DNA of 24,384 bases, from contig MGEP01000030.1 in the NCBI GenBank assembly GCA_001791425.1, forward strand, positions 1-24,384. Direction: 5' to 3'. Shown piece by piece: positions 2,992 through 13,464 of this stretch (within the stretch, counting starts at the first letter, position 1; each line of letters starts with the position of its first letter). A model generated the notes under the pieces. The model worked only from the letters and a program-made list of their open reading frames with translations, had not been told where the DNA came from and did not search any database. The stretch is from Candidatus Uhrbacteria bacterium RIFCSPLOWO2_02_FULL_48_12. GTDB taxonomy: Bacteria; Patescibacteriota; Patescibacteriia; GWA2-46-9. The position numbers and the translations under genes are program-made.

Positions 2992-3798
2992 ATGGCCCTA
3001 GTCTTTGCTGCCATTGTACCGCACTCGCCGCTATTGATTCCCTCAATCGGCAAGAAAAATACTAATAATCTGTCCAAAACAATTGAGGCCATGCAAGCCG
3101 TCACTCAACAGCTTATGGCCGCCAAACCGGAAACTATTATTATTTTGTCAAACCACCCGCTTAACCCAAGCAGTAATTCTAAATCGCTCACCTTTAACAT
3201 TCATGCCCGCTACCTGGCCAATTTTGAAGAGTTCGGTGAATACGGTGCAGGTTTCAGCATGCCGGGTGATATTGCCATGGCCCACCATTTAAAACACCGT
3301 TTTGACACACTGCGCGAAAAGTATCCTGTCACAATTTCAAGCCAAGAAAAACTGGACGGGAGCATTAGCACTACCCTGTTTTATTTATTGAAGAGCCAGC
3401 CAAATATAAAACTTGTGCCCATCAATGATACCATAGAAGACGATAAGCCGGAATTTATTATTGGTGAAAGATTGCGGCGGCCGATTTATCAGGAAAAAAC
3501 AAGAATCGCTTTGGTGGCCTCGCTCAACTTATCTCATCGGTTAAGTGAACTGTCGCCGGCCGGCTATTCAGCCAAGGCCAAAACGTTTGACCAAAGAGTG
3601 CTGGAGGCCATATCCAAAAAGCATCCTTTAACCTTGGCTCGTTTTAAAAAGGAAACACTGCTAGAGGTTAAAGAATGCGCTGTGCGTCCGCTTTTGCTGC
3701 TATTTGGCATAGTGAAAAACACACATTACACTCCAGAGATATTATCTTACGAGAATCCGTTTGGTATCGGTCATATGGTCATTAATCTTAAATTGTGA
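2992..3798 (+). CDS. LigB/MEMO-fold (class III extradiol dioxygenase-like, AmmeMemoRadiSam protein B-like) protein
   Basis: N-terminal FAAIVPHSPLLIPSIGK, PETIIILS, RIALVASLNLSHRLS..SPAGY and C-terminal LSYENPFGIGHMV match the family pattern. Confidence 0.75.
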   Translation: MALVFAAIVPHSPLLIPSIGKKNTNNLSKTIEAMQAVTQQLMAAKPETIIILSNHPLNPSSNSKSLTFNIHARYLANFEEFGEYGAGFSMPGDIAMAHHLKHRFDTLREKYPVTISSQEKLDGSISTTLFYLLKSQPNIKLVPINDTIEDDKPEFIIGERLRRPIYQEKTRIALVASLNLSHRLSELSPAGYSAKAKTFDQRVLEAISKKHPLTLARFKKETLLEVKECAVRPLLLLFGIVKNTHYTPEILSYENPFGIGHMVINLKL

Positions 3799-5831
3799 TC
3801 ATGTTCGCCGACGTTGTTCCCATCAAATATTTACCGCGGGGTATTGACCAGGAATTTACTTATCGCCTGCCGGTTGGTCTTCAAAAAAACATAAAACCGG
3901 GCCAGCTTGTGATCATACCTTTTCGCCGCCAAAACATACAAGGTGCGGCGGTGAGGATATACCATGAGCAAAAAACGGCGATAAAAAAAATATTAGGTAT
4001 TAAAGCAGTTCTCCCCTATCCCCCGCTGACCTTTGGCCAGCGGGGGCTTATTGATGAATTAGAAAATCATTATGGCGCCAGCCGAACCTTGGCTTACAAA
4101 ACTGTAGTCTCGCGGCTGACGGCCAAAATCCACCTCGTCCCGCCGCGGCAGGGCGAGCAGGCTAAAAATCAGCGCCATCGTCAAAAATCAACTGCCCTGC
4201 CTTTGGCCAAGATCAATCGCCGCACTTTGCGACTGCTTCTCGGAGCACGGAGCAAGCTAACCATTATTGGCTCTCTTTATGATCCGCGTCATCCTTTGTT
4301 CATTGAATATATACGTCGCCGCCTCAAAAATAGAGGTCAAGTCCTTTTGCTTTTTCCGGACAATGAGTCAGCAGAGATTGCCAAAAAGTCTTATGAAAAA
4401 TATTTTAATGAGTTCGCTTTGGTAATTTGGTCTTCTCGCGCGCCAATCAGTCAGCTAGGCCTTGACTGGATGCGCATCAGCACTGGAGAGGCCAGCGTCA
4501 TATTTGCTACGCGGAGCGGGCCATTTTTACCATTCAAGTCCCTGCGGTCAGTTATCCTTTTTGACGAAGCGGATGATAATTATAAATCATGGGATCAACA
4601 GCCATATTATGACACCAGATATTTGGCCGAGAGATTGACGGCGTTTGAGCAAGTGCCGTTTTTAACAACGCGGATTTTACCGCCTCTTTGGCCGAAAAAT
4701 AGAATTCTTGGCAGGATTCAAGCTGGCGCCAAAGCAAAATTAATCATCTTGGACCGCCGTGTTTCTCGTGAGGAAAATCGGGCCGCAATTATTCCCGAGG
4801 CCGCTCTCAAAGCCATTGGCCAATCTTCAACGAGCGCTCAAAGTTTAGTTTTTGTAAATCGTCTTGGTTATGCGGCTGTTTTATGCAATGATTGTCAATA
4901 TGCTTTTCGCTGTTCTGCATGCCATTCATTTTTAACTTATTTTACCCACGCACCAGTCCCGCTTGGCGGGACGGTGCGGGGTTCCGCTCCACGGAACCCC
5001 GTTCGGCAAGAAGCCACGGCTGTAAAGCCGTGGAGCTTCACTCCCGCCCCCGTTCCGCCGAGCGGGGTTCAGCCGCAGGACCCAACTTCGGCCGAGCATT
5101 CGGCCGCTGCCCTTAAGTGCCAGAAATGCGGTCACATAGAAAATAACCTCAACTCTTGCCCCCACTGCCATGGTTTAAAATTGCGATATTTTGGGTTGGG
5201 CATTGAAAGAATTTTAGAGGAGCTAAAACATAAATTTCCAAACAAAATAATTCAGCGCTTGGATCGTGATTCTTTGAAAAAGAGCAGTAATCTTTTTGCC
5301 CTGCTCAATAAGATTAAATCCAACCAAGTGGAGATCACCGTTGCCACCTCTATAATTTTGCCTCGCCTCTGGGCTCTGCCCTTATTTAATACAGTGACTA
5401 TAATGCAGGCCGAGAGCTTGTTTTTGTCGCCCCAATGGCATGCCAATGAGGATGGCCTAACCGCAATCCATCAATTATGGGCCGCCGCTAAACAATATTG
5501 CTATGTTGAGACCAATCTGCCTGAACATCCGGCGATTAAAGCCGTTAAATCCGGCCAAGAGAGCGAATTTGCCAAACACGAACTTTATGACAGAAAGAGG
5601 TTTCATTACCCGCCCTACGCGCGTCTCATTAAGCTAACCGCCGCCAATCAGCAATTTGTTTTGCCGCGGTCAATTGAGGACGATCATAATTTAAATATCG
5701 TTAACCTGGACCAGCAAAAAAATAAAAAAACAGTTTTAATAAAAGCGCCGCTTGATTATAAATTAAATCAGCTCTGGCCGCACCTTGACGCCAATTGGAA
5801 AATTGACGTTGATCCGGTGTCTATTAGTTAG
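3795..5831 (+). CDS. priA: Primosomal protein N' (PriA) with degenerate helicase motifs and an in-frame insert (start GTG 3795 or ATG 3801)
   Basis: N-terminal 3'-DNA-binding domain (EFTYRLP..KPGQLVIIPF), IFATRSGPFLP, DEADDNYK, FVNRLGYA, four CxxC pairs, GLGIERI, and C-terminal RFHYPPY. Lies in the usual priA-def-fmt context. Confidence 0.9.
   Translation: MIMFADVVPIKYLPRGIDQEFTYRLPVGLQKNIKPGQLVIIPFRRQNIQGAAVRIYHEQKTAIKKILGIKAVLPYPPLTFGQRGLIDELENHYGASRTLAYKTVVSRLTAKIHLVPPRQGEQAKNQRHRQKSTALPLAKINRRTLRLLLGARSKLTIIGSLYDPRHPLFIEYIRRRLKNRGQVLLLFPDNESAEIAKKSYEKYFNEFALVIWSSRAPISQLGLDWMRISTGEASVIFATRSGPFLPFKSLRSVILFDEADDNYKSWDQQPYYDTRYLAERLTAFEQVPFLTTRILPPLWPKNRILGRIQAGAKAKLIILDRRVSREENRAAIIPEAALKAIGQSSTSAQSLVFVNRLGYAAVLCNDCQYAFRCSACHSFLTYFTHAPVPLGGTVRGSAPRNPVRQEATAVKPWSFTPAPVPPSGVQPQDPTSAEHSAAALKCQKCGHIENNLNSCPHCHGLKLRYFGLGIERILEELKHKFPNKIIQRLDRDSLKKSSNLFALLNKIKSNQVEITVATSIILPRLWALPLFNTVTIMQAESLFLSPQWHANEDGLTAIHQLWAAAKQYCYVETNLPEHPAIKAVKSGQESEFAKHELYDRKRFHYPPYARLIKLTAANQQFVLPRSIEDDHNLNIVNLDQQKNKKTVLIKAPLDYKLNQLWPHLDANWKIDVDPVSIS
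4950..5106. repeat. GC-rich multi-hairpin palindromic insert inside priA (~153 bp, in frame)
   Basis: Hairpins at 4950-4977, 4977-5001, 5010-5039, 5048-5067 and 5089-5106. GC is 103/150 over 4951-5100 versus 21/60 in the preceding 60 bp. The CxxC spacer is 65 aa instead of the usual 14. Confidence 0.75.
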
Positions 5832-7298: not shown

Positions 7299-7326
7299 CA
7301 ACAACCCCGCCTCGGCGGGGTTGTTG
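7299..7326. terminator. Bidirectional hairpin/terminator between convergent fmt and CxxC gene
   Basis: Perfect 12-bp stem CAACAACCCCGC-ctcg-GCGGGGTTGTTG between two convergent stop codons. Confidence 0.8.
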
Positions 7327-11985: not shown

Positions 11986-13464
11986 TTATTCAGAACTGGA
12001 GACTGTAATTAATTCAGCTTCGCGCCGGTGAAATAATCCCCAAAAATACTGCACGTCGGCCAGTGATAATTCGCGCAGCGCAAAAAGCCCGGCCGTATAA
12101 ATTATGCCGCTGAGCAACACCACCAGCAATAACGGCATAAACGCAGTCATGGCCAGCGTCGCCCATCCCATTACAGCCACAGATACCAAAACTCGGCCTA
12201 AAGATTTTACGAGCGGCCATATTCGGTAAGCCACCACCAAACGCGCCAGCCATAATCCAATTAGCAAAACAGCCGCATTGGTAATAAACCATGACCAGCT
12301 TGCTCCAATGTAGCTAAGAGCAGGAATCAGCCATATATTTAAACCAATATTTATAATCATGCTAAGTCCAATGACCGCGGTCTGCCAGTGCTGGCGGTTG
12401 GCGGCGTTTAACAGCGCTCCCAGAGGGAAGGACAAAAAAACAAAAACCAGACTGGGCACAAGAATGCGCACGGCCAGAGCCGCTGGCCAATAGTCTGCCC
12501 CCAATTGCGCCACGAACTGATCGGCTAGGACAAAGAGCCCAATAGCCAAAGGCGCGCTGATAAGAAGAAGGTAGCGAAACGATTGCTCAAAAATATCACG
12601 CAGCCGTTCCGGGGCATGGCGGTGATAATAACTCATGGCCGGAAAGACCGCCGCCATAAAAGCCATGGGAATAAATTGAAAGGCATTCATTGTTTTAGCC
12701 GCTACGCTGTAAATGCCCACGGCCTGACTGCCTTTCAGAAAACTTAAAAGCACGGAATCGCTATAGGCGTACACCGCGGCAAAAATATTTGCCAGAGCAA
12801 ATGGCAGGGCCAATTTTTTAAGTTCTAGAATAACTATTTTATTCAGGCGCGGCCGCCACGATAAATGAAGCTCGCGGTTGAGAAAGTATGTTAGGGCAAA
12901 AAACGAAACAATACTGCCGGCGAGTATAGTGAGAGCTACATTGAGCGCGGAGGGCCAAAGGTAAAGCGCCACCAGGCCGAGACCAAGAATCAGAACTTTA
13001 TTCAGAATAACAACTATTGATTCAAACCAAAGATTTTGCCGCCCTCGAAAAACGCTTGTCCCAGTGAGAGCGAAAGAGTCAACAATCATAACAGCGCCGG
13101 CGACGATAATCAGTGCTAACGGCGGATGGCCGCCACCCAATAGCCGAACCGCATAAACCGTGCCCACTAAGGCGCCAAAAGCAATTACCGATAACCATAA
13201 TTTTATAGCGATAATGTTACCGAGATAGATAACGCTCTTTGATTCGTCGTGCGCCAGCTCACGTATGAGAACCGGCCCTAGTCCAAAATCCGCGAAAACC
13301 CCAAAAATGGAGCTCAAAGAAAAAGCGGCCACATACTCCCCGGTTCCGCCATTCCCTAAGGTTTTAGCGATAAATAAAAAGAAGAAGAAAGAAAGTATCT
13401 TCTGAACAACAAGAGCGACCGTTAGATAGGTTGTATTTTTAGCAATATTTTCTGGCGACGGCAT
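11986..13464 (-). CDS. wzx: Wzx-type polysaccharide flippase (MOP superfamily)
   Basis: IAKNT..., FADFGLGPVLIRE, YSDSVLLSFL..QAVGIYSVA, LNIWLIPALSYIGA; about 12-14 TM segments. Confidence 0.88.
   Translation of the reverse strand: MPSPENIAKNTTYLTVALVVQKILSFFFFLFIAKTLGNGGTGEYVAAFSLSSIFGVFADFGLGPVLIRELAHDESKSVIYLGNIIAIKLWLSVIAFGALVGTVYAVRLLGGGHPPLALIIVAGAVMIVDSFALTGTSVFRGRQNLWFESIVVILNKVLILGLGLVALYLWPSALNVALTILAGSIVSFFALTYFLNRELHLSWRPRLNKIVILELKKLALPFALANIFAAVYAYSDSVLLSFLKGSQAVGIYSVAAKTMNAFQFIPMAFMAAVFPAMSYYHRHAPERLRDIFEQSFRYLLLISAPLAIGLFVLADQFVAQLGADYWPAALAVRILVPSLVFVFLSFPLGALLNAANRQHWQTAVIGLSMIINIGLNIWLIPALSYIGASWSWFITNAAVLLIGLWLARLVVAYRIWPLVKSLGRVLVSVAVMGWATLAMTAFMPLLLVVLLSGIIYTAGLFALRELSLADVQYFWGLFHRREAELITVSSSE

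Follow-up and report, generated by a model that had tools for sequence, protein, structure and literature searches.

Bacteria of the Candidate Phyla Radiation (CPR; Patescibacteria) have very small genomes and are thought to hold little mobile DNA. Rickettsia palindromic elements (RPEs) were reportedly described by Ogata et al. in 2000. They are strongly structured repeats of ~100-150 bp that occur in many copies in a small, reduced genome, often lie in frame within unrelated housekeeping genes that stay intact, and have neither coding capacity nor a known transposase (PMC10969869). The IS200/IS605 insertion sequences, whose defining traits are set out in PMC3597680, have gene-less derivatives, PATEs (PMC10055086), with no terminal inverted repeats or target-site duplication, hairpins near both ends, and an orientation bias. 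REP and REPIN sequences are short GC-rich palindromes, dispersed and mostly intergenic. Here we describe a repeat found within the replication-restart helicase gene priA of Candidatus Uhrbacteria bacterium RIFCSPLOWO2_02_FULL_48_12, in a 24,384-nt stretch (assembly GCA_001791425.1, contig MGEP01000030.1, positions 1 to 24,384, forward strand; hereafter the window). The segment at 4941-5041 probably belongs to a family of mobile repeats in Patescibacteria that are non-autonomous and encode no protein, and its insertion would be recent. Its anatomy is closest to that of IS200/IS605-type non-autonomous elements and its behaviour resembles that of RPEs.

All coordinates without a contig name are window positions. 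The genome to which the window belongs comprises 795 kb in 64 contigs, is 89% complete, and has a GC content of 0.47; the second genome of the genus, referred to below as the same-genus genome, is the marker-complete Candidatus Uhrbacteria RIFCSPLOWO2_01_FULL_47_25.

The host gene of the insertion, priA (3795-5831, + strand), is an intact open reading frame (ORF) of 678 codons, identified by the PriA_3primeBD domain (E 6.5e-11) and by the PDB chains of E. coli and Klebsiella PriA (E 1e-26). Its cysteines are arranged as C364-x2-C367-x5-C373-x2-C376-x65-C442-x2-C445-x9-C455-x2-C458, which confirms the 5-65-9 spacing of CxxC pairs reported in the initial annotation: The loop between the second and third pairs holds 65 residues, against 14-17 normally. 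The codons of the first two pairs (C364, C367, C373, and C376; 4884-4922, + strand) lie upstream of the insert and those of the last two (C442, C445, C455, and C458; 5118-5168, + strand) downstream, and all are invariant in 16/16 aligned PriA sequences.

Relative to 15 CPR orthologues, in which this loop has 17 residues, the surplus amounts to 48 residues (F383-P430; 4941-5084, 144 nt). The 51 extra residues first claimed hold, as an approximate figure (about 51), for the comparison with E. coli PriA. The insert is a multiple of three in length, free of stops, and missing from E. coli PriA and from 15/15 CPR orthologues, the same-genus species included, so that the proposed check for empty sites succeeded in every case. 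The same-genus PriA is contiguous across the site, with 62% identity in the N-terminal aligned part and 47% in the C-terminal part. In an AlphaFold2 model built on the 16-sequence alignment (mean predicted local distance difference test score, pLDDT, 81; pTM 0.81), residues 385-437 have pLDDT <50 and no secondary structure, with confident strands at 379-383 and 439-442 on either side. Together, this model and the invariant cysteines fit a loop that sits on the tip of the zinc-binding hairpin and is tolerated there.

The inserted block is compositionally and structurally distinct from its surroundings. GC content is 0.69 at 4950-5049 vs. 0.35 at 4850-4949, matching the jump to about 69% from about 35% noted at the outset, and the five stems and both direct repeats listed there (GCGGGGTTC at 4976 and 5062; CCCCGTTC at 4997 and 5048) are all found. 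The interval 4935-5120 folds at -97.7 kcal/mol on the + strand (z = -6.45; 0/200 dinucleotide shuffles as good) and gives z = -5.64 on the - strand. The initial annotation had taken the block as one five-hairpin element of ~153 bp. All of its stems exist, but the repeated unit is ~101 nt long and has three hairpins. Sequence comparison instead divides the block into a family copy of 101 nt that has three hairpins, then 14 additional codons with the fourth stem, and, last, probably native codons with the fifth.

The first part, at 4941-5041 (+ strand), is a full family copy of subtype A, consisting of TTTA followed by CCCACGCACC, closing with GGAGCTTCAC, and encoding the in-frame peptide FTHAPVPLGGTVRGSAPRNPVRQEATAVKPWSF(T). 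It scores 116.6 bits (E 5e-25) against the covariance model of the family, which matches the window at 4940-5043 only. Seven further copies of 4941-5042 occur in the genome at 93-99% identity, along with many more at lower identity. TTTA at 4941-4944 (+ strand) stands directly 5' of nearly every copy; the element may begin with these bases or may prefer them as its target, and no empty site resolved to the nucleotide was found that would assign them to the target. It is followed by a left helix, P1 (4945-4981, + strand), formed by CCC/GGG and by CGCACC (4949-4954) with GGTGCG (4973-4978), a pairing kept in 24-25/27 copies. Inside P1 lies an exchangeable cap hairpin, GTCCCGC-TTG-GCGGGAC (4956-4972, + strand), which in other copies is another palindrome or is deleted. 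In the right helix, P3 (4986-5036, + strand), GCTCCACGG (4986-4994) pairs with CCGTGGAGC (5028-5036), with compensatory variants elsewhere; in the priA copy, P3 competes with two local hairpins listed in the initial annotation, GGGGTTCCG/CGGAACCCC (4978-5000) and CCACGGCT/AGCCGTGG (5015-5033). The conserved 3' end of the element, TTCAC, occupies 5037-5041 (+ strand), and GCTTCAC terminates 28/31 copies.

The remaining two parts differ in their relation to PriA orthologues. The second (5042-5084, + strand) is a GC-rich in-frame extension of 42-43 nt, or 14 codons, whose fourth stem pairs CCCCG (5048-5052) with CGGGG (5063-5067); it is missing from the orthologues. No significant match to 5043-5117 was found anywhere in the genome, nor a family-model match there, and the segment is thus single-copy; a 17-nt stretch within 5042-5084 resembles the reversed cap hairpin, though not significantly (E 0.61). 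The third part (5085-5117, + strand) encodes TSAEHSAAALK, contains the fifth stem CGGCCGA/TCGGCCG (5089-5106), and aligns to VSNQSNGANIR of the same-genus PriA. With equal length and weak identity to the orthologues, it is probably native to PriA and forms the second half of the loop.

The 795-kb genome holds at least 38 copies of the repeat, and its same-genus counterpart at least 19; the copy-number check suggested by the initial annotation therefore came out positive. A profile search gave 28 full-length and several partial copies and the covariance model 37, and the addition of end-motif miniatures brought the count to at least 38. Members measure about 47-160 nt, and their ends read TTTA|CCCA(A)CGCACC ... 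GGAGCTTCAC. The general layout is TTTA, then CCCA(A)CGCACC-AG, a cap hairpin, CGGTGCG-GGGTTYC, an optional hairpin, GCTCCAC, a variable part with one or two hairpins, and GTGGAGC-TTCAC. Conservation ends abruptly four bases before CCCA and immediately after TTCAC: Positions -4 to -1 are T in 26/31, T in 29/31, T in 27/31, and A in 29/31 copies, and nothing is conserved further out.

These sharp, conserved ends are what an alignment had been expected to define, but the target-site duplication also sought was not seen in the flanks of the copies examined. Terminal inverted repeats are likewise missing, as the ends TTTACCCA... and ...GAGCTTCAC do not match when one of them is inverted. Contig C57 has two copies in tandem, of which the diverged second begins right after the TTCAC of the first and uses TTCA in place of TTTA. 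Internal hairpins are modular, being swapped, added, or deleted between copies, and miniature copies of 47-61 nt consist of the two ends and one hairpin only, which points to the ends as the active parts. The palindromes TCCGCC-N3-5-GGCGGA (52 in the genome) and CCCGCC...GGCGGG (74), with window examples at 7299-7326 and 22319, lie mostly outside the family, and they also act as exchangeable caps at three element positions.

Base pairing is conserved in both helices. P1 pairs CGCACC with GGTGCG, and G-U variants occur. In P3, the bases directly after the GGGGTTYC core pair with those directly before TTCAC, and compensatory variants in this and other genomes include GCCCCACGG/CCGTGGGGC, GCGCTCCG/TGGAGCGC, GCTCTGCA/TGCGGAGC, and GCCCACGGAT/ATCCGTGGGC. 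RNAalifold returned a weak consensus on the full alignment, and P3 was found by anchoring on the conserved core and the 3' end. With that register, 232/287 cells are paired, vs. 38-51% when the strands are slid, and 0/2000 shuffles of the 31 distinct variants reach the observed value. Judged from these sequence patterns, helices P1 and P3 are under selection and kept by compensatory changes.

Beyond the genus, the distribution is patchy. The other three genomes of the host family (which is the whole order as sampled, 5 genomes) gave no match to the family model. In the class, 14/151 genomes have copies, namely the two genomes of the genus and 12 others with 1-3 copies each; in other classes of the phylum, copies occur in 5/150 genomes, three of them in one genus. 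Near-identical copies and this patchy cross-class occurrence therefore indicate spread rather than vertical descent. A 17-mer of the 3' end is found in 12 IMG/VR viral contigs, about the chance expectation, and none of these matches the model.

Copies lie mainly between genes. Although a rough gene call assigns about 89% of the genome as coding, about 29/38 copies are intergenic and only about 9/38 fall within genes. Relative to local genes, 26 copies are in sense orientation and 12 in the opposite one (26:12); GC skew cannot tell a replication bias from a transcription bias because the genes themselves carry skew. At least nine genes hold in-frame copies, in both orientations and at least four of them antisense. 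Of the six frames of the canonical unit, four are open, and each in-gene copy is read in one of these.

Besides priA, sense copies occur in the gene for a 2234-residue surface-type protein (with the same frame and peptide as in PriA), in uvrC (a partial copy in the GIY-YIG domain), in a pilin-like leader peptide (a miniature copy), and in a hicA-like gene (contig C2:6347-6694), where the copy encodes or replaces the C-terminus. Antisense copies lie in frame in genes for a GT4 glycosyltransferase and a DHFR/RibD_C-like protein, in uvrB (a partial copy, giving 30 residues without counterpart in solved UvrB structures), and in an ORF on contig C9. Since uvrC carries family sequence in both species, it was hit independently in both. 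The initial annotation had proposed an RPE-like mobile parasite of coding sequences, and this proposal is supported by copy number, empty sites, the other in-frame copies, and the assembly.

Several of these host proteins show further peculiarities. UvrC of the same-genus genome (minus strand, 2740-2950 of the extracted locus) has an in-frame block of ~70 residues made of several GC-rich palindromes, a family variant included. UvrB has, at about residues 500-530, ~18 residues duplicated in tandem and in frame (...LTDYLSEAGIKV... occurs twice); solved UvrB proteins do not have this duplication, which is either real or an assembly slip. On contig C18, a diverged copy (13073-13185) lies directly against the codons with which the conserved part of ribosomal protein L5 begins (...LKEKYQQEIVP). 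As in-frame starts are found only within the element or upstream of it, the repeat seems to have lengthened the N-terminus of L5 by as many as about 40 residues. A separate insertion of ~35 residues (NPVRELARGIRPSARTGKLHPAESTSWRSGAFSNG) is present in the same-genus PriA near the N-terminus, at about codons 40-75, and is missing from the 15 other sequences; genome-wide searches with the family model gave no match on that genome's priA contig. A second GC-rich palindrome within the window's priA (4100-4166; GCCCTGCCGCGGCGGGAC on the minus strand) encodes a poorly conserved, low-pLDDT linker (residues 118-132), and its family-model match is at chance level (E 0.21).

Set against the described systems, the family resembles RPEs in the respects named above: size and strong structure, copy number in a small reduced genome, frequent in-frame residence in unrelated housekeeping genes that remain intact, and lack of both coding capacity and a known transposase. 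It differs in its host, a patescibacterium rather than an alphaproteobacterium, in being GC-rich within a 47% GC genome, in the largely intergenic placement of its copies, and in combining conserved ends with modular internal hairpins. The likeness to RPEs would thus be one of functional kind and not of lineage, and common descent is unlikely given the host lineage. With PATEs it shares the absence of terminal inverted repeats and target duplication, hairpins near both ends, and an orientation bias, and the short motif TTTA(C) directly 5' of the element resembles the element's own 3' end, TTCAC. REP and REPIN sequences are likewise short, GC-rich, dispersed, and mostly intergenic palindromes; the present unit, however, combines two helices in ~100 nt and has specific unpaired ends, whereas theirs is a palindrome of 20-40 nt or an inverted pair. 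Related CPR genomes do contain RAYT-like Y1 genes flanked by palindromes of their own, but the repeats around those inspected are different, and no RAYT was found in the genus. A literature search found no paper describing such elements in CPR bacteria.

These observations lead us to the following account of the priA locus. The element inserted into the priA loop that joins the two halves of the zinc-binding region, and the insert, together with the 14 further codons, would be translated as a disordered surface loop. PriA presumably tolerates this loop since its eight zinc cysteines are all in place and the fold around them is undisturbed. Copies that are in frame and free of stops would simply be the survivors of selection. 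The element would be moved in trans, perhaps as single-stranded DNA, by IS200/IS605-type "peel-and-paste," with insertion 3' of TTTA(C) and ends marked by hairpins. Movement of this kind, driven in trans by an enzyme outside the binned genomes, is the least certain step, and we offer it tentatively, as more doubtful than probable.

A number of results weigh against this account. The disordered loop is an AlphaFold2 prediction, its translation is inferred, and the low pLDDT of the insert is partly expected because the alignment holds no insert homologues. The family copy does not account for the single-copy segment 5042-5084. In either genome of the genus—the two richest in copies—searches for Y1_Tnp (TnpA), TnpB (Zn-ribbon, OrfB_IS605), rve, and DDE_Tnp_1 found none, and tblastn with five CPR Y1 proteins gave nothing below E 0.1. 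Y1 genes occur in 13/18 element-bearing vs. 18/37 element-free genomes, a difference that is not significant and is drawn from related, nonindependent genomes; those inspected are flanked by their own, different repeats, and the element's ends are not there. Neither genome of the genus contains a long copy with a gene between the ends, and the searches returned no autonomous relative sharing these ends. Finally, the gap from TTTA(C) to the foot of P1 is only 3-4 nt, a motif-to-hairpin distance much shorter than in IS608, which is impaired by short linkers (PMC3597680).

The lack of a transposase is weak evidence because bins often lose mobile DNA; the repeat is nonetheless at most a candidate member of the IS200/IS605 family, whose decisive enzyme was not found. 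Y1 genes are present in 20/41 genomes of the class, and in another genome one lies 135 nt from a copy, yet is flanked by its own, different palindromes. Solo ends in the window's genome are miniatures, and end motifs in the same-genus genome pair only at 46-110 nt. A search for Phage_integrase returned only one or two Xer-like genes per genome.

A different view of mobility is that the repeat represents a new type of small mobile element, with a two-helix single-strand fold, spreading in Patescibacteria without a transposase of known families and perhaps relying on a host enzyme of replication or repair, or on the genus's reverse transcriptase acting through an RNA intermediate. On that view the landings in priA, uvrB, and uvrC, all replication or repair genes, might not be accidental. 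We regard it as unlikely. A reverse transcriptase is present in both genomes of the genus, and no link to the element was found. In the window's genome it lies 11 kb from the nearest copy (contig C29:31-1032), encodes 333 residues that are weakly group-II-like and below the family cut-off, and adjoins a divergent 130-residue ORF; in the same-genus genome (contig C26:5012-5684) it seems frameshifted, and the nearby copy lies in uvrC. It may be part of a diversity-generating retroelement.

Rather unlikely as well is a functional structured RNA, either a small RNA or a cis-acting mRNA element, kept in many copies and present in priA as a by-product. Compensatory changes in two helices across genomes, the 26:12 sense lean relative to neighbouring genes, and a stable fold (z = -6.45) with alternative, mutually exclusive pairings would all suit such an RNA. 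The same helices, however, would form equally in single-stranded DNA, in-gene copies occur in both orientations, and internal hairpins are freely exchanged, added, or lost, down to miniatures that keep the ends only. Near-identical copies with a patchy cross-class spread also speak against it, as does the absence of an Rfam family match: In Rfam 15, introns and ribozymes included, the priA copy and 13 diverse copies gave chance hits only (E >= 0.035, far below gathering scores).

The size, copy number, and lack of coding capacity of the family would fit a classical miniature inverted-repeat transposable element moved by a DDE transposase on double-stranded DNA. Such an element should have the terminal inverted repeats and target-site duplication that are missing here, rve and DDE_Tnp_1 were not found in either genome of the genus, and cut-and-paste of double-stranded DNA gives no reason to expect that hairpins would be selected. 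We consider this origin very improbable.

Even less credible is a small structured intron or other excised RNA, removed from the priA message to restore a normal PriA loop, which the initial annotation had raised as its alternative. The rRNA genes of CPR bacteria are noted for carrying insertions, and strong structure does bring together the two ends of the element. Yet the insert is exactly 144 nt long and stop-free, a constraint that introns do not need, and antisense copies in the GT4, DHFR-like, and UvrB genes keep their frames open too. Excision of the copy before rplE would, as read from the sequence, leave L5 without an in-frame start, and no intron or ribozyme family matches.

The assembly was checked by aligning Logan unitigs from four groundwater and soil runs to the region. 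Two of the four gave error-free unitigs across both junctions: on the left from native priA to 15-29 nt inside the element (4580-4969 and 4580-4955), on the right from 28-29 nt inside the element out to priA (5014-5700 and 5013-5468). Word depth within the element is 181-427, vs. 3.5-10 in the flanks, across the four metagenomes. No empty-site read-through was seen among the unitigs of the four runs, and a search of metagenome contigs for a strain with an empty priA site returned only distant orthologues and one chimeric contig, JGI Ga0209541_10033177, in which the left half of priA leads into the element and the element into the hicA-like locus of contig C2. An assembly artefact, with the repeat wrongly threaded into priA, therefore deserves scarcely any credence: The repeat does mis-join assemblies, as that chimera and two copies abutting runs of N attest, but the flanks here are the two halves of one priA, ordered and in frame, and both junctions are covered with no empty-site joint seen. 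An assembly chimera, or a single-copy insert conserved in all orthologues, would have spoken against mobility, and neither is what we find.

If 4941-5041 is indeed a copy of a mobile, protein-less repeat, about 0.5% of a 0.8-Mb genome consists of one such repeat, found even in essential genes for replication and repair, which its insertion has not inactivated. The family would then be a second, independent example of what was long counted as a peculiarity of Rickettsia. By adding unstructured loops to conserved proteins, it would supply raw material for new protein segments; for metagenomics, it breaks or mis-joins assemblies and inflates annotated protein lengths. Its well-defined ends and helices, with no transposase found, make it a tractable case for studying how such elements move.

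A further class of small genes was noted in both genomes of the genus. Each has six stand-alone GIY-YIG nuclease genes encoding 80-120 residues, which in the window's genome lie at C39:11306, C52:769, C22:3634, C1:306, C39:6016, and C55:7001. The family model gave no match near these genes. Most are immediately next to tRNA or tmRNA genes or inside duplicated portions of them, and they look like a separate homing-type mobile system.

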